A stretch of DNA of 64,000 bases from Candidatus Riflebacteria bacterium HGW-Riflebacteria-1 (GCA_002839445.1 PGYB01000006.1:1-64000); one strand, 5' to 3'; positions 2,457 through 24,761 are shown, numbered from the stretch's first letter. Numbers and translations: made by a program. Notes: a model not told the origin generated them from the sequence alone.

Positions 2457-3206
2457 ATGAAGCGATTTTTTGGATTGTTGTTATCTGTAGCTCTTCTGAT
2501 AGCGGTTTCTGCGGTTGCCGGTCCTTCCGGAACTGAAATTGGCAAATGGACCGATTGGGTGCGGGCGGACAAGCTCGACCTCGAATACCGCGTACGCTGT
2601 AACGGTCTTGGAACAACTCCCAACGCGTATATGTGGGACGTTGAAGTTATAAACAAAGGGGCCGATATCGCGAAGTTTGGCGTTAACCTGACTCCAACCG
2701 ACATGGCCACAGAACCGACAAAGGGTTGGATGACCTGGCCGATCGGTGGAAACAGATGGCACAAATTCGTAGGCTTTCGCAGCGAAGCCGCCCCTGGTCA
2801 GAGGGTGAAGGTCTGGCTCAAGAATCTGTCTTCAGAAAAGCAGAATGTCGCAACCGGTCATCTCGCCGCCGGCAAGCTTGATTCGGTAGACGGAACAGTT
2901 TTCAATGCCTGCAACATGGCCTGGAAGGTTGGCAAAGCCGATCTCGACTGGAACCAGACCCAGGAATGGATAAAGAGTCTCGGCCTCGGCTGGCGCTCAC
3001 CGACAAAGAACGAGCTGGTCATGCTGTTCAAAGAAGTCGGTCAGAAAAGCCCGATTGGCCAGGATTATGTCTGGGCGGAACCTAAAGATGAACATTCTGC
3101 CTGGCATTTCAGTTTCTATTATCGCGAAGTGCGCTGGTCATACTTTGACGACCATAGTCGCTATGGCCGTGGCGTTGCGGTTCGTCCAATTACTGATCGT
3201 TATTAA
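2457..3206 (+). CDS. Secreted DUF1566 (Lcl C-terminal domain) protein, 249 aa.
   Basis: N-terminal signal peptide MKRFFGLLLSVALLIAVSAVAG. C-terminal WRSPTKNELVMLF...YVWAEP...AWHFSFYYREV...GVAVRPI matches the DUF1566 WRLPT..EL pattern. RBS GGAGTAGAGAG lies upstream. Confidence 0.55.
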   Translation: MKRFFGLLLSVALLIAVSAVAGPSGTEIGKWTDWVRADKLDLEYRVRCNGLGTTPNAYMWDVEVINKGADIAKFGVNLTPTDMATEPTKGWMTWPIGGNRWHKFVGFRSEAAPGQRVKVWLKNLSSEKQNVATGHLAAGKLDSVDGTVFNACNMAWKVGKADLDWNQTQEWIKSLGLGWRSPTKNELVMLFKEVGQKSPIGQDYVWAEPKDEHSAWHFSFYYREVRWSYFDDHSRYGRGVAVRPITDRY

Positions 3207-3227
3207 AACTAAGCAGGGTATGATTTG

Positions 3228-4646
3228 ATGGCAAGGTTGCTGATTGTTTCGCCGCCGCTGCATTTTGAGCAGCACCTGCGACGCAGTTTCCAGCCGCCAT
3301 TAAATCTGCTTTACCTCTACGCCTATATCAGTTCTCGCGGGCATGAGGTTGAGTTGCTTGAATGTGCCTCGGTTGACGAGACAGTCGCGGCGATTATCGA
3401 CAGATCACCCGACTTTGTCGGTATTCCTCTCTATTATGCCTCGCTTGAAAACACCTTCGCGATCGTAACCAGAACCCGCCAGCGCTCACCTGATATAAGG
3501 ATGATCGCTGGCGGGCCCTGTCTAACCATGGAACCCGAGCGAATGATACGCGAAGGCGGTTTTGATTTTGGAGTGTTGGGTGAAGGGGAAGAGACGCTGC
3601 ATGATCTGCTGTCGTCGGCGCCAAACGAAGAGGCCTGGTCATCCATCAAAGGCCTGGTTTTTATGCGTGATGGTAAGGCGATTGTTAATCCGCTTCGGCC
3701 ACCAATTGCCAGTCTTGACGCGTTACCATTTCTCGATTTTTCTGTGGTCGACAATGATTATTACTTTTCTTTTCAACAAAAGATGGGGATTCCCCCGACC
3801 GTTTTTCTGAATTCTTCGCGCGGCTGCTCATTTCGCTGCAGTTATTGCTGCACGCCAGTGCTCTGGCCTGGCCCGGTGCGACGATATTCGCCGCAACGCA
3901 TGATCGATGAAATCCGCTTTCAGCTCGAACGCTTTCCCGGTGCAGAAATCGGGTTCTGCGATGATTCATTCTTTTCTGACCGCAACTGGCTGAAAGAGTT
4001 TCTGAGACTGGTTAAGCCACTTTCGATCAAATTTCAATGCATTGGTCGCGCCGATCATCTTAATCCGGCGGTAATCGGCGAACTTGTCGATTCCGGTTTA
4101 ACCTACATCGCCTTCGGGGTCGAGACCGGAAACTCCTCACGCCAGACGCGCCTGCATAAAAATCTCGATCTGGCGAAGCTTGTCGCTACTATGAAAGAAT
4201 TGTCCAGATACCAGGTCAAGACCAAATGTTTTTTCATGCTGGGCTTTCCTGATGAAACCATCGAGGAAATAGCCGAAACCATTAACCTGGCGGTTACGTT
4301 AAAACGGCTCGGCATGAACTTATTCAGTATTTTTCCGGTTACTTTATACCCTGGCACCGAGCTTGCCAGACAGTTTCCAACCAGTCACTTTCAATGTGGG
4401 CTGGATGCGCATCTCCCAGAGATTATTCGCGACCATCTCGAAATCAGCCAGGCTGACCAGGAAAGGCTTGACAGTCGCTTCAATGCGCTGCTTACCCAGA
4501 GACAGATGGTCGAGGTCGTCAGCTTCGCCTGGGAGATGATAGAAAAAGCCGAAACAGTTTCCGTCGACGAACTGCAGCATCTAATAAACAGAACTGAGCC
4601 ACAGAGCAGTGCCCCGGTTGTCACCGGCCCGCACCAGGAGAAATAA
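3228..4646 (+). CDS. B12-binding domain radical SAM protein (class B rSAM), 472 aa.
   Basis: N-terminal Rossmann-like B12-binding region (LLIVSPP...NLLYLYAYISSRGHEV). The radical SAM motif CSFRCSYCC lies about 200 aa in. Paralogous to 5882-7342. The ATG at 3228 follows a TTG. Confidence 0.8.
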   Translation: MARLLIVSPPLHFEQHLRRSFQPPLNLLYLYAYISSRGHEVELLECASVDETVAAIIDRSPDFVGIPLYYASLENTFAIVTRTRQRSPDIRMIAGGPCLTMEPERMIREGGFDFGVLGEGEETLHDLLSSAPNEEAWSSIKGLVFMRDGKAIVNPLRPPIASLDALPFLDFSVVDNDYYFSFQQKMGIPPTVFLNSSRGCSFRCSYCCTPVLWPGPVRRYSPQRMIDEIRFQLERFPGAEIGFCDDSFFSDRNWLKEFLRLVKPLSIKFQCIGRADHLNPAVIGELVDSGLTYIAFGVETGNSSRQTRLHKNLDLAKLVATMKELSRYQVKTKCFFMLGFPDETIEEIAETINLAVTLKRLGMNLFSIFPVTLYPGTELARQFPTSHFQCGLDAHLPEIIRDHLEISQADQERLDSRFNALLTQRQMVEVVSFAWEMIEKAETVSVDELQHLINRTEPQSSAPVVTGPHQEK

Positions 4647-18551: not shown

Positions 18552-18833
18552 TTATTCCTCCAACAGATACAAGATTAAACAAGTATACGCATATAGACTT
18601 CAGTCTGCAATAGTCAGACGATAGCCGATCTGGCAAACGTTCAGCCGTGCTCAAAGCTGGTTTCATGGTGAATTTATCAGTGTTATTGAGTAATCGCATG
18701 CAATCTCATCGCGCGGTAATTGGCCGTTTCGTTTGCGGGAAAGGGATTTCGAATTTGCCTGCCAGTCGCATGTTTGCGAGCTGCATGTATTTACAGTCCA
18801 CAGAATGTTGACGTCTTGGCTGTAACTTCGTTC

Positions 18834-18919
18834 GTTGAAACTTTGCCAGTAACTTACTGCAGGTTTACATAACTCGATAAGTTGAAACTTTGCCAGCAAC
18901 TTACTGCAGGTTTACATAA
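18834..18919. repeat. Tandem direct repeat of 2 x 39 bp with a 47-bp period, ending in the ...CAGGTTTACATAA motif. The same motif also starts the dif-like site downstream.
   Basis: GTTGAAACTTTGCCAG[T/C]AACTTACTGCAGGTTTACATAA occurs at 18834-18872 and again at 18881-18919. A third GGTTTACATAA occurs at 18953. Confidence 0.7.
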
Positions 18920-18949
18920 TTCCAGGCCTCCAGCCTGCTCGTTTATTTC

Positions 18950-18982
18950 TTTGGTTTACATAATATTTATTATCAGACGTTT
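18950..18982. other. dif-like (XerC/D-type) recombination site. Candidate attL of the downstream element.
   Basis: GGTTTACATAA-TATTTA-TTATCAGACGT versus E. coli dif GGTGCGCATAA-TGTATA-TTATGTTAAAT. The left arm and the CATAA-N6-TTAT core are conserved, while the right arm diverges. Confidence 0.4.
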
Positions 18983-19388
18983 ATTTACCATACCCTTACA
19001 ATAAGGATTAAGACAAGGAATGTCAAGTATTACTTTGTATGTCATTTATACCCCCCGTGAGACCGCTCGGGGGGATTCCAAAAAGTATGCAACTAAAAAT
19101 TAAGTAAAAACCATTGCCAAACAAAAGAAAGAAAAGCAAAAAATACCAATATAATGATAAAAAATCCAACTATGTAAACAGTAAATTTTGTGTCTGCAAT
19201 TTTAAAAGCAAGATAATCATACAAATTGAAATCTTTCATAAAAAAAACTCCTGCATAATTTGAAGCCAGACAACGACTAACAAAATAAGTGCTATAGCTT
19301 CTCGCTCTCTCGAAGCGCGATTAAAGCTATTGTTGTCTGGAATAGCTTTGTAATATTCTAACCTTTTTTTGGCTTTATGTGGAAAGAA

Positions 19389-19421
19389 AAAAGGGAACCT
19401 TTTCAGGTTCCCTCAATACGG
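19389..19421 (-). terminator. Rho-independent terminator at the end of the element operon.
   Basis: Read on the minus strand: GGGAACC-TGAAAA-GGTTCCC followed by TTTTTTCTTTCC. Confidence 0.5.
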
Positions 19422-19495
19422 CCGGCAACTTCTAGACCGCCGGCCGGCCGCTGACGGGTGCAAGATTTATTCCCCAGCCCATCAGCGGCCTAAGT

Positions 19496-20125
19496 TCAGG
19501 CAGCTTGGCCAAGCACTGGGTCAGAAGCATCAACACCAGCACCAGCATCATTAGATACCAGGCTGAAATTAGAAAGTTTCTCGTATTCTTTGATCATGGC
19601 ACCGACTGCTTCACTTGTGTAATAAGCACCAAGCTCGGTTTTGTTGTCATCAACCCAACCGATTTTGCCAAGTCCTGCAACACCGAGACCATCAGAAATC
19701 TGTGTAACAAGACCCTTGAGAGATGTTCTGGTGACATCATCAGTCGGCCACGGCACGAAAACCTTCTGCGACATGATCTTAGGTGCATCAGGGTCACAGC
19801 CGTTACTTGCAATAACTGAACCAGCAAGACGAAGGTTTGAAGGAATTACTTCAGGCATCTCGTCATTACGGTAGTGACCAAGAATCTTTACAAGCTTGGC
19901 AATAACGCCCATGGACATTTTACCGATCTGCTCCGCAATGTAAATTGCAAAAGCTTCAACGGCTGCCTCAGTTGTGCCTACTACTTCAAACTTGGTAGTA
20001 GCCCACTTTTTACGACCGCAAGCTTTATCAAGAGCACACATTGTAAGTTCATAGCGCCCTGCTTTAAGCTTACCATTAGCTGAACCATCAAGTTCGGCTG
20101 CGAAAGGGTAAAAACGAATGGTCAT
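19496..20125 (-). CDS. Hypothetical protein of 209 aa, last gene of the element operon and a possible structural protein.
   Basis: Strong RBS AAAGGAGG 6 nt before the ATG at 20125. No recognisable motif and no P-loop. Confidence 0.5.
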   Translation of the reverse strand: MTIRFYPFAAELDGSANGKLKAGRYELTMCALDKACGRKKWATTKFEVVGTTEAAVEAFAIYIAEQIGKMSMGVIAKLVKILGHYRNDEMPEVIPSNLRLAGSVIASNGCDPDAPKIMSQKVFVPWPTDDVTRTSLKGLVTQISDGLGVAGLGKIGWVDDNKTELGAYYTSEAVGAMIKEYEKLSNFSLVSNDAGAGVDASDPVLGQAA

Positions 20126-20135
20126 AAGACCTCCT

Positions 20136-21824
20136 TTATATTTTACGTGACGTAATGCGATCTTCGTCACTGTTTACGACAACTTCATTTTCAAGAACTT
20201 CTACTAATACCGGCTCGTAGTCTTGATGAAATACTTCAACAAGCCCCTTGGAAGGTTCTTGATTATCACCAACACAGCAACCTTCAAGTATTAACCCTTT
20301 ATCTACAATTTCAACAAGACCAAGCTCAGGATTGCATTCAGTTTCAGGCTTAATAACGCCCTTCTCAACGATACAAGCAATACCACGATCGCCACAAACG
20401 AGACTATCAGCAATAAGCTGTAATTTTGCCTCAATAGACATGTATTCTAACTCCTGAATTAAACAATCTTGGCCATTAAGACCGTCAACACCGTCTTGAC
20501 CATCAATACCAGGCAAACCGGTATCACCTTTATCGCCTTTAACACCTTGTAAACCTTGAACACCCTGTATACCTTGTATTCCTTGTGAGCCAGTATCACC
20601 TTTTTCGCCCTGAATACCCTGTATACCTTGTGGACCTTGAGCACCTTCTTGACCTTCCCACCCTACGCCTGGCTCGCCCTGTATACCTTGTATTCCTTGT
20701 GCGCCTTGTGAACCAGTTGCACCAGTATCACCCTTTACACCTTGGATACCCTGAACTCCCTGATCGCCAGTATCACCTTTATCACCCTTATCACCTTTAT
20801 CACCCTTATCACCTTTCTCACCCTTTACACCCTCAGTTGCACCAGAACGTATATTGAGAATCAAAGAATAAAGATTCTGTATCTGAACGCGCAAAGCATC
20901 ACAATCACAATCATTATCATTAGGTGGTGGTGGCTGAACACCTCCATCACGAGGAGTATCATCAGCATCAGCATCACAACAAACATCACCAGTATCTGAA
21001 AAGCCTGTAACCGACATATAGAGCGTTGTAAAGCGCTCAATATAGACATTTGTAAGACTTATACCAATACAAGATATCTCAGCAAAATCTTTACACTCAG
21101 AACAACTGGCAGTTGCAAAATTAACATCCTCAGAAAAACCATTACCAGCACCGATTATCAAACCGCCCATACCACCTGCAGGAATGGTATATTTACGTGC
21201 ACCTATCTGAACAACACCGTTTTTACTACTGCCTGATAAAGCTCTAAAAGAAACTCTATCGATAGTTTTCCATGCAGACAAAATACCATTAAGAGCATTT
21301 TGATCTGATAACCAATAATCACCAGCAGAAGGAATAACTATATCCTGAAAAAAAGTAACTTGTTTATTAAGAATATCAGTGCCAGTGATAGCTATACGGT
21401 AATTATCGGTATAAAACCGACTATCAGCACAAGTATTGAAAGCTGAAAACGCAAGAGTAATACTCGGATTAGATTTGTTCGGCTGACCAAAATCTACCCA
21501 ATTGACATCATCAAGAACCTTTGCAGATGTTATAGGATTAGAAAAATTGCTTGTAACATAATAAGCATATAAATCAGGCACACAAGAAGAAAATAAAGCC
21601 CAGTTTGTTACAGATGCAGAGTTAAGCTTAAGCTCAAACTTAGTAACACTCTTTAGGCGACTCATTGAAGCACTACCTTGTGCTGATTGAATAGCGCAAT
21701 ATCCTATTGAATTATCGTAATAAACACGCAATAGCAGCCATGAAGGATATGCAGTAACAACAGGAGGATTTGCAGCTTCTGTTATACGCACATCAAATTT
21801 AAGTTCTTTGAAAGAAATGGCCAT
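20136..21824 (-). CDS. Collagen-like triple-helix repeat protein of 562 aa: N-terminal globular domain, about 110 aa of GXY repeats, and a C-terminal domain.
   Basis: There are uninterrupted Gly-X-Y triplets (GEKGDKGDKGDKGDKGDTGDQGVQGIQGVKGDTGATGSQGAQGIQGIQGEPG...GLPGIDGQDGVDGLNGQ). The layout resembles phage tail-fibre or BclA-like collagenous proteins. TAATG overlap with the upstream peptidase gene. Confidence 0.8.
   Translation of the reverse strand: MAISFKELKFDVRITEAANPPVVTAYPSWLLLRVYYDNSIGYCAIQSAQGSASMSRLKSVTKFELKLNSASVTNWALFSSCVPDLYAYYVTSNFSNPITSAKVLDDVNWVDFGQPNKSNPSITLAFSAFNTCADSRFYTDNYRIAITGTDILNKQVTFFQDIVIPSAGDYWLSDQNALNGILSAWKTIDRVSFRALSGSSKNGVVQIGARKYTIPAGGMGGLIIGAGNGFSEDVNFATASCSECKDFAEISCIGISLTNVYIERFTTLYMSVTGFSDTGDVCCDADADDTPRDGGVQPPPPNDNDCDCDALRVQIQNLYSLILNIRSGATEGVKGEKGDKGDKGDKGDKGDTGDQGVQGIQGVKGDTGATGSQGAQGIQGIQGEPGVGWEGQEGAQGPQGIQGIQGEKGDTGSQGIQGIQGVQGLQGVKGDKGDTGLPGIDGQDGVDGLNGQDCLIQELEYMSIEAKLQLIADSLVCGDRGIACIVEKGVIKPETECNPELGLVEIVDKGLILEGCCVGDNQEPSKGLVEVFHQDYEPVLVEVLENEVVVNSDEDRITSRKI
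20771..20822. repeat. Tandem 18-bp (9+9) repeat inside the collagen-like gene.
   Basis: TCACCCTTATCACCTTTA is repeated about 3 times, encoding (GDK)n. Confidence 0.7.
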
Positions 21825-22213
21825 TAAATAATAACCTCAACATGCCAGCATTTTTGAACACTTACAGCATGCTTACCATTCGGACTAGTAACTAGTGCTG
21901 GACTGCGTAAGACACGGAACCGCTCAACATCAACGACAGGAGGGTTACTATAAACAGAAAATCCAGCAATAGGCACAAAATCGCGCGACATGCCCAAACG
22001 ATGAAGGGATTCCAACGCTCCATTATATTTTCTGTTAACAGACTCGGCTCTAAAGCCACTGGTAGCACGGAATTTACCCGGATTTTTTTCTTGAATCTCT
22101 GCCTCAATTCGCGATTGTATCGTGCGTATGAAATGTTGACAACACGGCGGCAACCGTTTAAACGCTTGAATGTTCGCACTTTCGAGGCAATCATAAGGCA
22201 TGTGACTCTTCAT
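21824..22213 (-). CDS. Peptidase M15 family protein (zinc D-Ala-D-Ala carboxypeptidase/endolysin-like, Peptidase_M15_3), 129 aa.
   Basis: ATSGFRAESVNRKYNGALESLHRLGMSRDF matches the SGYR..N...GG...S.H..G.A.D core of M15A/DUF882 cell-wall hydrolases. Confidence 0.55.
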   Translation of the reverse strand: MKSHMPYDCLESANIQAFKRLPPCCQHFIRTIQSRIEAEIQEKNPGKFRATSGFRAESVNRKYNGALESLHRLGMSRDFVPIAGFSVYSNPPVVDVERFRVLRSPALVTSPNGKHAVSVQKCWHVEVII

Positions 22214-22215
22214 AA

Positions 22216-22542
22216 TTAAGCCCAGTGATCATCATCAGACATATTCGCCATATCAGCACGAGATTCATCATCTGAGGAAATGATTTTTTCAACATAAAAA
22301 GAAATTTCTGGCGCATTGTATTTGCCGATTTTGAGAGTTGGTGAAAGCTGAATCTCCCGGCCTTCAAGAGCATCAGGAATCAATTTTTCAGGAATGTTTA
22401 CATCGAAATTGATGAAAAGTCCTGGGATGCCGATTGTTGCTTTTACATATTCTTTATCTTCATGTTTACGAGTTGTTACACGCAGTATCTGACCCTGAAG
22501 AACACCTTTAACGCCTCTTGCCAATGCTTCGAAAAAATTCAT
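22216..22542 (-). CDS. Hypothetical protein, 108 aa (element).
   Basis: ATG preceded by RBS AGGAGC. Acidic C-terminus. Confidence 0.45.
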   Translation of the reverse strand: MNFFEALARGVKGVLQGQILRVTTRKHEDKEYVKATIGIPGLFINFDVNIPEKLIPDALEGREIQLSPTLKIGKYNAPEISFYVEKIISSDDESRADMANMSDDDHWA

Positions 22543-22644
22543 TTTTTTTGCTCCTGAAAAGATTTTATTAGATACTCAAACGCCTGTGAATGAAGCTTGT
22601 TAACCTCATCAACAGATAATACACATGGTTTTATGTTTAAATTA

Positions 22645-22920
22645 CTATCCACGCAAATTAAAAACTCTATTGATAATGACATGACGAGAATAACCTGAAA
22701 ATGGTCTACCTTGATTTGAACGAAATACAGCCCTTGAATCAGCTTCTGCATTACGAATAGAAGGTATTAAATGAAAAGTTCCAGAAATAGAACTAGAATA
22801 AGAATAAGGTGAATGAGGATTGCGAGAACCCCAATTATTCCATGTTGCAGGAATCCATCTTCTACCATTTTCTCGTGAAGCATTTACAGAATAATTTTTA
22901 AAGCCTGATGATTTAATCAT
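22645..22920 (-). CDS. Hypothetical protein, 91 aa (element). Uncertain.
   Basis: An ATG at 22920 is used (the ORF-track start is a TTG). It overlaps an alternative 70-aa ORF at 22539-22751 in another frame, and only one of the two is likely real. Confidence 0.3.
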   Translation of the reverse strand: MIKSSGFKNYSVNASRENGRRWIPATWNNWGSRNPHSPYSYSSSISGTFHLIPSIRNAEADSRAVFRSNQGRPFSGYSRHVIINRVFNLRG

Positions 22921-22921
22921 T

Positions 22922-23179
22922 TTATTCAACCTTTACATTAATAAAATTTTCTTCGTCAGGCCTGCAAATATGCTCGTTTAAAGCAATATCTAACATAGTT
23001 TCCATTTCTGTATCTGTCCCAAAATAACCATCTCTTATTCTTTCTTCACAAAGTAAAAAATCTTCTTCTTTAACAAATTCAGCTGTCAATTTTTTTACTG
23101 ACATAGAATCACCGACAACAACGACACAAACAATGTAAGCAACGTTTTTTTGTTTTGGTAAAGTTATAGGTAATTTCAT
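22922..23179 (-). CDS. Hypothetical protein, 85 aa (element).
   Basis: ATG start, abutting the Rep-like gene (stop/start adjacent). Confidence 0.4.
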   Translation of the reverse strand: MKLPITLPKQKNVAYIVCVVVVGDSMSVKKLTAEFVKEEDFLLCEERIRDGYFGTDTEMETMLDIALNEHICRPDEENFINVKVE

Positions 23180-23881
23180 CTAAAACTCCTTTTCCTCATG
23201 TTCTGCCATGAGATCAAAAACACTCATGGAATCAGTATCTAATACAGGACGTTTACAAAAAATACGCTTCTCAAGCTGAATTGCGCGATTATAATTTGAG
23301 CGCATTTTGTTGATAGCGTCATTGTAACGACGAATATCATCGTTATCTTTTCGAATATATGAAGTATTCTGACTCTTAGGATATTCAAAACCCTGAAAAG
23401 AATAACGACGAAAGCATTGACCTAGAATCTCTCTATATAAAGAATCATAGCTTGACCATGATTCTGGACTGTTAATATAAACAGCGCGCCCTGTATCACC
23501 TTTAAACTCAAATTCTAAACGCCAAATAGCGGTAAAACCCTCATATTCAGGGTGTCTTAACAAAAAATGCGGGTCTTTTTCATCGGTAAGCTTGTCATAA
23601 ACACGAAGCAAAGAATCACCTGAATATGGGTTTGTGCGAATGATAGTTAAAATTTTGTCATCTACACGACCATAGAAAAGACTTTTTTGTCTGCTACCTG
23701 GCTGAGGTAAAACAGTTGGCACAGGTATATACCGCTCACCCATTGAAACGAAATCAACAGCGGCATCTACTCGCACTGGACAAATCTGTATCTCAAGACT
23801 TGACAAAAAACCTAAAAGTTGATTTACAAAATCAAATGAGAAGCCATAGCGGAAAAAAGTTCCGGCAAGTTTTATTGTCAT
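23180..23881 (-). CDS. Candidate rolling-circle replication initiation protein (Rep_trans/RstA-like), 233 aa. Tentative.
   Basis: CPVRVDAAVDF resembles the R-x-D-x-A-x-D block recalled for Rep_trans-family initiators. Tyr-rich stretches follow (YGRVDDK...RVYDK). It is the first gene of the operon next to the repeat boundary. ATG at 23881 chosen over the upstream TTG. Confidence 0.35.
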   Translation of the reverse strand: MTIKLAGTFFRYGFSFDFVNQLLGFLSSLEIQICPVRVDAAVDFVSMGERYIPVPTVLPQPGSRQKSLFYGRVDDKILTIIRTNPYSGDSLLRVYDKLTDEKDPHFLLRHPEYEGFTAIWRLEFEFKGDTGRAVYINSPESWSSYDSLYREILGQCFRRYSFQGFEYPKSQNTSYIRKDNDDIRRYNDAINKMRSNYNRAIQLEKRIFCKRPVLDTDSMSVFDLMAEHEEKEF

Positions 23882-24112
23882 TGCTGGATTGCGTAACCTT
23901 GGCCTGAGATCATGAAAAATAGTTATACCGTAGTCATCTGATCTCAAAGACTGGTAATAATGCTGGTTTCCGTATGATTCTCGGAACTCAATAGAAGATA
24001 AACATTTCTTTATCTCTTTGAGTATGTATTCAACTGCAACAAAGTCACACCAAATGCCGGTTTCAAACCAATCAAGATGATAGTTTGTTATGACACTCTC
24101 GTCACCTGACCC

Positions 24113-24132
24113 AATATTTATTATCAGACGTT
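24113..24132. repeat. Right-hand copy of the 20-bp direct repeat. Candidate attR or pseudo-dif half-site.
   Basis: Identical to 18962-18981. Only the central and right-arm part of the dif-like site is duplicated, and the left arm differs. Confidence 0.45.
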
Positions 24133-24252
24133 GTGCTTTTTGGGTAGGGGGTGGTGGGTATTGCCAATGTCGGGTTATACCGTTTATTTGGGCTCTCGGT
24201 ATGATCGCAGTTCTTCTAGCCTGAGCCGCCCGGCAGCCTCGTGCTTAAAATG

Positions 24253-24272
24253 CCCGCCTGCGCCCTTAGTCG
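24253..24272. repeat. Short dispersed motif TGCCCGCCTGCGCCCTTAGT, copy 3 of 3.
   Basis: See copies at 1-20 and 251-270. The surrounding 24180-24290 shares the blocks GGGCTCTCGG and CGCTTCAACT with 138-175. Confidence 0.45.
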
Positions 24273-24761
24273 CTTCAACTAACCGGATATTTGAGTCTGA
24301 CTTATTTATGCAGTTCCCAATAATACCCTGAAATATGAATTCTACTTATTTAGTTCGTTTTTTACTGTTTGTTTTCGTTCTCGTAATCGCAATCGAATCT
24401 CTTCGTAATCGATCTTCGTCTTCAGCTCTTCAATTCAGCCCCCAGTCGATTACGATTACCGCTTCGCTGAGCACGAGCACGGTTTGTAACGTGCAAGCCT
24501 GAATTGATGTTAACCAAGGCTTGGTAATATCTCGCCTGAACAAACGATGACTGCTGGGCTTCTTTTGTAATGCACTTGTATAAGCCAGTTCTGAGGATCT
24601 GCATATTCCAGTTCATCTGCGGCAGAAAAATAATCTCGATAAATCTTACAAATATACTGGATGCTGGCTGCGATACTTGATAACATTTTACAGGACGACT
24701 GAAAAAGTTTTTCTCTGGAGTCTTACGATACCCCGGAGATTATTGATCTTACGGAGCAACC

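Follow-up and report, generated by a model that had tools for sequence, protein, structure and literature searches.

The window analysed here, a 64,000-nucleotide stretch from Candidatus Riflebacteria bacterium HGW-Riflebacteria-1 (GCA_002839445.1, PGYB01000006.1:1-64000), carries at 18982-24132 a compact block that is, very probably, an intact integrative mobile element that exploits Xer (IMEX). We read it as a circular, phage-like replicon of ~5.15 kb, inserted at the chromosomal dif site and carrying its own attachment site (attP) inside its replication-initiator gene (rep), with replication presumably off for as long as it stays integrated and, likely, with a virion. The IMEX lifestyle itself is known; what is new is an uncatalogued element family in an uncultured phylum, and this family is probably a new one of small temperate phages, likely with single-stranded DNA (ssDNA) and with a virion that is so far only predicted.

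An initial annotation, made from the sequence alone, had described an IMEX-like module that borrows host recombination. A dif site, an empty site in related genomes and free relatives now support this core, although that annotation had missed the attP inside rep, the promoter and start codon lying in its "noncoding arm", and the intactness of all open reading frames (ORFs).

Integration at the chromosomal dif site

The block is delimited by the 20-mer AATATTTATTATCAGACGTT, of which the window holds two exact copies (18962-18981 and 24113-24132) and no third copy even when up to three mismatches are allowed; none of 100 shuffles produced such a repeat. The element is poorer in GC (39.1%) than its two flanks (49.9% and 49.1%), its conserved ORFs are tightly packed and all lie on the minus strand, and none of its ORFs has a Pfam or PHROGs match to an integrase, resolvase, transposase or Zot-type ATPase. 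The initial annotation was thus right about the non-chance repeat, the AT-richer one-strand block, and the lack of an integrase and a Zot-type ATPase. No tRNA or Rfam family was matched in the window, which rules out a tRNA or RNA-gene attachment site. The features that define the integrated state are as follows.

18862-18920, plus strand: two additional XerD half-sites GGTTTACATAA (18862-18872 and 18909-18919), lying, on dif's host side, in a tandem duplication of 47 bp (18823-18916)
18953-18980, no strand assigned: dif after integration (attL), with XerD arm GGTTTACATAA (18953-18963), centre TATTTA (18964-18969) and XerC arm TTATCAGACGT (18970-18980)
18962-18981, plus strand: left repeat copy, which starts 2 nt before the end of the XerD arm, covers centre and XerC arm, and extends 1 nt beyond
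18982-24132, minus strand: integrated element, 5151 bp, one repeat copy included
18982-18991, minus strand: 5′ end of rep (ATG GTA AAT A…), cut off from the gene body by integration
18998-19026, minus strand: promoter-like TTGACA-17-TATTGT, sigma-70-like (10/12), ending 6 nt before the rep ATG
23180-24132, minus strand: rep body, its frame open up to and through attR; first usable prophage start TTG 23947
24104-24131, no strand assigned: hybrid attachment site (attR), in which the pseudo-XerD arm ACCTGACCCAA comes from the element and is joined to the shared centre and to the XerC arm
24113-24132, plus strand: right repeat copy, whose minus-strand translation is part of Rep (…KRLIINI…)

Read on the opposite strand, the left-hand site at 18953-18980 is ACGTCTGATAA-TAAATA-TTATGTAAACC. 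It agrees at 22 of 28 positions with the experimentally confirmed dif of Bacillus subtilis, ACTTCCTAGAATATATATTATGTAAACT (Kono et al. 2011, PMC3025954), including 10/11 in the XerD arm and 5/6 in the centre, and at 17/28 with Escherichia coli dif (XerD arm 8/11). When 185,579 species-representative genomes were scanned with the inner 21 nt (TTTACATAATATTTATTATCA), 49 genomes matched, with one match apiece; these include the loci titled Riflebacteria, Rifleibacterium or Ozemobacteraceae, together with Desulfobacterota, WOR-3 and others, and the exact 28-mer is present in 13 of the 49 loci, those titled Riflebacteria among them. The flanking positions left unspecified in the query were strongly biased as well, the five outer positions of the XerC arm being G in 32, A in 35, C in 31, G in 24 and T in 36 of the 49. 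A single copy per genome, conservation across phyla and a dif-like build together mark this 28-bp site as the chromosomal dif of the host.

At the other end of the element, the XerC arm and the centre are combined with a pseudo-XerD arm that matches the B. subtilis and E. coli XerD arms at 6/11 positions and the host arm at 5/11 (manual count). In the reconstructed attP, ACGTCTGATAA-TAAATA-TTGGGTCAGGT, the XerC arm and the centre equal those of dif and the XerD arm is degenerate. This is the arrangement described for attP of IMEXs of the TLCphi and gonococcal genetic island (GGI) type, in which the XerC arm and central region match dif and the XerD arm diverges (PMC5357621). The attR layout is identical in kind in the relatives L001, L003, L004, L056 and L060, and the rep-proximal sites of the window and three free forms (XerC arm, centre, pseudo-XerD arm) compare as follows.

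Window (integrated): ACGTCTGATAA-TAAATA-TTGGGTCAGGT
L001 (free form): ACGTCTGATAA-TAAATA-TTGAGTCGACA
L004 (free form): AGGTTTGATAA-TAAATA-TTGAGTCTAGC
L056 (free form): ATGTCCGATAA-TAAATA-TTGAGTCTAGT

For the strain itself, the predicted junctions read …GGTATGGTAAATAAACGTCTGATAATAAATATTGGGTCAGGTGAC… at attP and …GGTTTACATAATATTTATTATCAGACGTTGTGCTTTTTGG… at attB. An attP of another style is seen in L061 (JGI 3300006033 contig Ga0075012_10032388), whose 209-aa protein is 80% identical to that of the window: at rep codons 5-14 (L061 1121-1170) it reads TCGACTGATAA-TGCTGTA-TTATGTAAACC, with an XerD arm that is perfect and a centre that diverges and spans 7 bp, which points to two IMEX attachment styles within one element family.

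The initial annotation had suggested searching related genomes for the empty site, and two of them have it. In HGW-Riflebacteria-2 (L032), homologues of the flanking 598-aa gene (74% amino-acid identity) and GAF-GGDEF gene (70%) are adjacent, and the spacer between them contains one dif and no insert; the arrangement is the same in Rifleibacterium amylolyticum (L030). In 14 Riflebacteria-type loci, dif lies beside a creatininase-family gene, which in the window follows the GGDEF gene. The window spacer between attR and the GGDEF gene (24133-24761) measures ~630 bp, against 186-225 bp from dif to the GGDEF gene in L030 and L032, so that ~400 bp are extra, and it has almost no similarity to the equivalent spacer of L003.

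Integrated copies were also found elsewhere. Over 1918 bp, an independent JGI contig (L065) is 100% identical to the left junction of the window, evidence against a chimera in the metagenome-assembled genome. On L003, the ACD_39C contig of the Rifle aquifer, attR and rep adjoin a 1.4-kb portion of the same GGDEF gene (88% amino-acid identity); L003 had been considered as a free circle, and was recognized as an integrated copy when tblastn found the host GGDEF sequence. In L060, the order is creatininase gene, hybrid site inside rep, 5.7 kb of element, true dif (AGGTCTGATAA-TAAATA-TTATGTAAACC) and host genes, and its two XerC arms differ by 1 nt, which is consistent with strand exchange in or beside the central region. 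L068 is integrated beside other host genes, with the att site again at the start of rep. Related elements in L003, L060 and L068 therefore all abut host genes at the rep-proximal att site.

Relatives also occur as free forms, namely contigs L001 (with which L002 is grouped; 4858 bp), L004 (4868 bp), L056 (4737 bp), L061 (4343 bp) and L071 (5087 bp). Both ends of each of these five contigs fall within the gene for the big structural protein, and the order runs from the C-terminus of this protein through the last gene or genes, the non-coding arm, a full-length rep, the small ORFs and the M15 peptidase gene to the N-terminus of the big protein (in L071, an M15 gene also stands ahead of rep). This order is a circular permutation of that of the prophage, for which a circle or a tandem array is the only source. 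A unique, non-repetitive 30-bp terminal overlap closes L056 into a circle of 4707 bp; the 28-bp terminal overlap of L001 was dismissed as proof of circularity, since it falls in a 9-bp-periodic collagen repeat. The search for junction-spanning forms that the initial annotation had proposed thus yielded free-form contigs of relatives and, in the JGI metagenomes, none of the same strain; a degenerate flank pattern intended for a same-strain empty site or circle junction matched only the dif sites of two other species among the JGI contigs.

Additional XerD half-sites accompany dif beyond the window too: seven other Riflebacteria loci (L032, L030, L011, L049, L034, L039 and L026) each have one half-site (A/G)GGTTTACATAA on the XerD-arm side of dif, at a distance of 58-104 bp. 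It could serve as an accessory site for XerD binding, or it could be a scar from past IMEX traffic.

The split rep gene and its product

Integration splits rep. The initial annotation had begun this ORF at 23947; the frame in fact continues through the right repeat, and joining the two ends of the element as in a circle gives ATG (18991-18989) GTA AAT AAA CGT CTG ATA ATA AAT ATT…, that is, a 320-aa Rep starting MVNKRLIINIGSGDES…, with an alternative 338-aa reading from an upstream ATG also open in the circular form. The reconstructed protein aligns end to end with the Reps of the free forms. In a first search of 5.8 billion proteins, only four other clusters were close to it; their genes encode 317-351 aa and start MNNRRLIINI… or MKKTEGLIINI…. 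In L001/L002, L004 and L005/6, a TTGACA promoter, an ATG and a dif-like core are followed by an uninterrupted rep; the L001 promoter, TTGACA-17-TATAAG, is at the corresponding place and that of L004 is likewise promoter-like, both by manual reading, the promoter tool having been applied to the window only. In every free form whose Rep has an RLIINI-type N-terminus, attP falls within the opening codons of rep, and more distant Reps, such as that of L071, are without an attP-bearing N-terminus. Thus attP is a dif mimic that occupies codons 4-13 of rep, and the invariant LIINI of the closest Reps probably reflects a constraint on attP as DNA.

In the integrated state, the promoter and start codon of rep (18989-19026) lie 5.1 kb from the rep body and point outwards from the element, towards dif. 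No in-frame ATG, GTG or TTG is present in the window after the upstream stop and before TTG 23947, which is codon 66 of the 320-aa protein, and the NCBI annotation of this gene starts later still (233 aa). A start at codon 66 or later gives a product without the conserved HLDW aspartate, a predicted metal ligand. That rolling-circle initiation is off in the prophage and regained on excision is therefore a plausible inference.

Two observations concern the start of rep in the wider family. By manual reading, the -10 hexamer is only 5-6 nt from the rep ATG both in the window (18998-19026, 18989-18991) and in L001 (1715-1757), which suggests that rep mRNA may be leaderless or nearly so in this element family. 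In the integrated copies of L003 (1662-1738) and L060 (10001-10056), the first ~19-24 residues of chimeric Reps are host-encoded.

The initial annotation had proposed a candidate Rep on the strength of an RxDxAxD block, and this was a sound guess. An exhaustive profile search recovered only 36 clusters (E <= 0.001) among 1.84 billion representatives. A 5-sequence Rep profile gave nothing useful against the PDB, and the 37-sequence family profile alone worked: its best PDB match is 4CIJ (RepSTK1; E = 0.0018), in an alignment that pairs LDW, R-x-D-x-A-x-D and R-V-Y-D-K with VDWL, TRLDVAVD and RFYEK. Foldseek, run with a Rep model of pLDDT 52, returned three 4CIJ chains as its top matches (probability 0.97-0.99, E about 1e-3, TM-score 0.35-0.42). 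Both the model confidence and the TM-scores are low for a claim to the crescent-shaped beta-sheet catalytic fold. The Pfam family Rep_trans (PF02486) was matched weakly by 7 of the 37 aligned members (best 2.6e-5), and the window Rep lies below its curated threshold and hence outside the Pfam family as defined.

In RepDE/RepSTK1, the catalytic residues are Tyr191(179), R189(177), K193(181) and E196(Q184), and the metal ligands are D46(9), D142(116) and E214(196) (Carr et al. 2016, PMC4797284). The candidate counterparts in the 37-member alignment, in the numbering of the 338-aa protein (Y200 is Y182 of the 320-aa protein), are conserved as follows.

D42: 35 of the 35 members having a residue there
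D144: 37 of 37
R/K198: 33 of 37
Y200: 36 of 37
K202: 36 of 37
D/E205: 35 of 37
E228: 36 of 37, assigned by motif order, outside the RepSTK1 alignment

The motif R198-x-Y200-x-K202-x-x-D/E205 matches the catalytic R-x-Y-x-K-x-x-E/Q, and the RxDxAxD block is the strand bearing the second metal ligand. By this active-site pattern, which is what places it in the superfamily, Rep is a very divergent rolling-circle initiator of the Rep_trans (pT181/CTXphi) type. The profile searches that the initial annotation had recommended gave a divided outcome: Rep_trans fails on the window Rep and is weak in 7 of 37 relatives, and no capsid model matched, whereas the collagen region and, slightly under its cutoff, the M15 peptidase were recovered.

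Taken together, we propose the following cycle. With no recombinase of its own, the element would enter through host Xer recombination between the chromosomal dif and its attP, so that a true dif (18953-18980) and a hybrid site (24104-24131) come to flank it. The same event would part the rep promoter and ATG (18989-19026) from the remainder of the gene (24132-23180) by 5.1 kb, so that, with no start before codon 66, the prophage would lose the metal-binding aspartate of Rep and with it rolling-circle replication. Xer-mediated excision would rejoin rep and restore replication. Because Rep is a nicking initiator of the Rep_trans type, the free form would then replicate by rolling circle through ssDNA, and the remaining operon would make and release a small virion from the small basic, 108-aa and 209-aa proteins, the M15 peptidase and a trimeric, collagen-stalked fibre.

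The remaining genes and the non-coding arm

All ORFs of the element are intact, and the conserved ones are full length relative to those of the free relatives. Apart from rep, the following features were recognized.

22922-23179, minus strand: 85-aa ORF directly after rep, not conserved in relatives
22645-22929, minus strand: small basic protein (91/94 aa), likely start ATG 22920 (MIKSSGF…, 91 aa)
22216-22542, minus strand: 108-aa protein, kept in all relatives examined (75-117 aa)
21824-22213, minus strand: M15 peptidase, a 129-aa LAS-type zinc peptidase, Peptidase_M15_3-like
20136-21824, minus strand: 562-aa fibre-like protein, its N-terminal domain variable, followed by a collagen stalk and a C-terminal tail that is conserved
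19496-20125, minus strand: 209-aa protein, the most conserved gene of the element family
19392-19490, minus strand: downstream of the last gene, a row of three hairpins ending in one (19392-19413) that is an intrinsic terminator (19414-19391)
19093-19239, minus strand: 48-aa ORF with one hydrophobic helix, also gene-called in L065
19051-19074, minus strand: GC hairpin CCCCCCG-AGCGGTCTCA-CGGGGGG, just upstream of the rep promoter

As a correction to the initial count of three or four tiny ORFs, a 70-aa ORF (22751-22539) is probably spurious, as it overlaps a frame kept in relatives. The small basic proteins start MI(K/R)(S/T)(S/T)GF and are rich in arginine, serine, glycine and aromatic residues; the family is kept in L001, L004, L056 and L061, with three paralogues in L063, and is a candidate for DNA condensation. 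For the 108-aa protein, no PDB, Pfam or PHROG match was found. An ssDNA-binding or scaffolding role is a guess, and it stays one for an OB-fold ssDNA-binding protein, a candidate for which no PDB match speaks.

The M15 assignment of the initial annotation was correct. The zinc ligands (H-x6-D … H; H71, D78 and H124) do not vary among nine family members, eight of which match the endolysin family PHROG 894, and the family profile matches PDB 1LBU, a Streptomyces D-Ala-D-Ala carboxypeptidase; the Pfam M15_3 score is 22.4 bits, slightly below the 23.2 cutoff. The enzyme is likely a cell-wall hydrolase acting in lysis or entry. The window copy has a 15-residue insertion, ALVTSPNGKHAVSVQ (aa 96-110, 22084-22128), before the last zinc ligand, which is missing in 8 of 8 aligned relatives.

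The 562-aa protein, rightly described as collagen-like at the outset, combines an N-terminal domain with 30% identity to its L001 counterpart, a Cys-rich motif and a Gly-X-Y stalk (about aa 330-450, roughly 20475-20837; Pfam Collagen 1.9e-19), and it is through the collagen part only that PHROG tail-fibre families match it. L056, L061 and L063 are without a Gly-X-Y stalk in this place, where manual reading of their sequences suggests a coiled coil. The tail …VNSDxDxITSRKI is common to the window, L001 and L061. Such a build is that of a trimeric fibre. The 209-aa protein may be the major structural protein; its predicted model is not a jelly roll, and for homology between its family and the 188-191-aa proteins found in L004, L056 and L060 hhalign gives a probability of 13%. 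No recognizable capsid fold was found in either protein, for both of which the initial annotation had proposed structure prediction.

The 400-bp AT-rich arm that the initial annotation had called noncoding does end a terminated operon (19414-19391), but the region (18982-19495) is not empty: it contains the rep promoter and first codons, the three GC-rich hairpins, a second conserved hairpin and the 48-aa membrane-type ORF. Folded as DNA, the three hairpins reach -34.1 kcal/mol (z = -6.28). GC-rich inverted repeats occur at the matching place in L001, L004, L056 and L061 (read manually), and the two GC-rich hairpins of the window ahead of the terminator are a candidate single-strand origin. 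The hairpin at 19051-19074 has a similar counterpart with CGGTCTCAC at the same place in L001, and hairpins occupy that position in L004 and L056; it may be an origin element. A motif CTTTCCACA(T/A)AAAG, common to the non-coding arms of the window, L001, L004 and L056, is a further candidate origin. The 48-aa ORF shares only its first codons with L001 and is not conserved; it is possibly a holin or membrane protein, with weak support.

The coding strand is T-rich and C-poor in seven of seven genomes, as in known ssDNA phages. L063 (JGI 3300020029 contig Ga0206643_101664) combines an unrelated HUH-type Rep (PF23343, REP_ORF2-G2P; rep 2650-3504) with the same non-Rep module, made up in this case of M15, the big protein, a 213-aa and a 75-aa protein and three basic proteins of the MIKTTGF type; the patterns tried revealed no dif-like site of the window type in it. 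Such an exchange of Rep against a retained module is typical of small DNA viruses.

Alternative readings and relation to known systems

Several results weigh against an intact, phage-like IMEX. Neither the truncated nor the reconstructed window Rep has a sequence match in Pfam, PHROG or the PDB, and its AlphaFold2 model is poor (pLDDT 52), with Foldseek TM-scores of just 0.35-0.42. No attB or attP junction of the same strain was found in the JGI metagenome contigs, no GC-skew switch, as expected of a dif at the replication terminus, occurs at the site within the 64-kb window (+0.014 to the left, +0.010 to the right), and host xerC and xerD, lying outside the window, were not seen. The loss of the rep start is not universal, as the host flank supplies an in-frame ATG in L003 and L060 and thereby chimeric Reps of 341 and 351 aa. 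No recognizable capsid fold was found among the element's proteins, no relative of Rep or of the 209-aa protein among 50,697 GenBank phage records, and in IMG/VR no Rep relative and essentially none for the family.

One alternative is an IMEX of the same build that is not viral, namely a small rolling-circle plasmid or integrative mobilizable element, or a satellite borrowing a helper capsid, in which the Rep_trans protein would serve as replicase or relaxase (as in Tn916 and ICEBs1) and the other genes as surface or cargo functions. We regard this as unlikely, though a contender to be taken seriously. It is at odds with a compact, fixed, one-strand gene set across genomes of ~4.7-5.7 kb, with the joint presence of an M15 peptidase of the endolysin type, a small protein rich in arginine and a trimeric fibre whose end domain is hypervariable, with the lack of a coupling protein or other conjugation gene in the element, with a strand composition like that of ssDNA phages, and with the retention of the non-Rep module when Rep is exchanged for an HUH type in L063, which is usual for the structural modules of viruses.

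A decayed or domesticated prophage remnant, immobile and as such the alternative that the initial annotation had entertained, would account for an integrated rep without a start codon and for the failure to find the excision product of the same strain. We consider it very improbable, since the conserved ORFs are all full length relative to the free relatives, the repeats are perfect, and the rep start and promoter are intact at the opposite end, precisely where a circle needs them. Since the sequence comes from a metagenome-assembled genome, one might also suspect an assembly chimera, or ordinary chromosomal DNA in which the repeat arose by chance; with no repeat in any of the shuffles, the left junction reproduced at 100% identity by an independent JGI contig, and three further contigs in which related elements abut host genes at the rep-proximal att site, the likelihood of this is negligible. 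The intact, dif-integrated, phage-like IMEX is thus the reading that we retain. A bolder form of it, an undescribed family of small temperate ssDNA viruses of Riflebacteria with a novel-fold virion (a shell of the 209-aa protein and collagen or coiled-coil fibres) and a lysogeny switch hard-wired through attP in rep, is put forward tentatively, with somewhat less than an even chance.

Among known systems, the satellite phage TLCphi of Vibrio cholerae and the GGI resemble the element in having no integrase, in the attP layout and in sitting between a true dif and a hybrid site. They differ from it in host phylum, gene content and replication protein subfamily, all of them unrelated, and the attP of the element lies inside the rep coding sequence. 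None of its small ORFs has a Pfam match to the Xer activator XafT/DUF3653; a non-homologous activator is possible. Filamentous IMEX phages (Inoviridae) such as CTXphi, which uses a Rep_trans-family initiator (PMC4797284), and VGJphi share integration at dif by Xer, rolling-circle replication and one-strand operons. However, unlike Inoviridae and Plectroviridae, the element has neither a Zot/pI ATPase nor a conserved small coat protein, its only small membrane ORF being unconserved, and it does have a cell-wall peptidase and a large fibre protein; moreover, its attP is a plain double-stranded dif mimic and not a folded ssDNA hairpin. The pT181-family initiators (RepC, RepD, RepSTK1) share with Rep the three acidic metal ligands on separate strands and the R-x-Y-x-K-x-x-E/Q motif, and 4CIJ is the best profile and fold match, yet the window Rep falls short of the Pfam model.

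The closest parallel in lifestyle is offered by the enterogokushoviruses, temperate Microviridae of E. coli (PMC7062461), and the microvirus proviruses of Bacteroidetes (PMC3091885), ssDNA phages of ~4.3-4.7 kb that have no integrase and integrate at dif through XerC/XerD. In enterogokushoviruses, the motif on the bacterial side is conserved, that of the phage is variable in its spacer and XerD arm, and the phage dif motif lies "occasionally" in the N-terminus of the replication protein VP4 (Kirchberger & Ochman 2020, PMC7062461). What is occasional there is regular here: among the relatives examined, every Rep of the RLIINI or a similar type carries attP, and in the window, in contrast to gokushoviruses, integration leaves no alternative start codon. 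Microviridae also have a jelly-roll capsid protein (F/VP1), pilot and scaffold proteins and an HUH Rep, whereas the element has no Pfam or PHROG capsid match, no pilot or scaffold protein of the microvirus kind and a Rep_trans-like Rep. The initial view that the gene set fits neither a textbook inovirus nor a microvirus is consequently upheld by the Pfam, PHROGs and GenBank phage searches.

Dozens of metagenome assemblies contain the element family, with 43 protein clusters. In IMG/VR, a homologue of the 209-aa protein occurs on one contig only (L064, IMGVR_UViG_3300020047_005622, 8307 bp; homologue at 135-824). This contig joins it to unrelated genes that look like those of double-stranded DNA phages (ORF translations only), and is probably an assembly chimera or a remnant.

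No paper on a Riflebacteria phage was found in literature searches, and within what was searched the element is the first lead to a mobile element or phage for this uncultured phylum, for which it also provides a usable dif sequence, including the conserved extra XerD half-site nearby. The presence of attP in rep offers a natural test of self-silencing by insertion at dif, with gokushoviruses as a convergent case. If the 209-aa protein is the capsid protein, it would represent a new capsid type, and the family as a whole samples a diversity of small DNA viruses that current detection pipelines miss.

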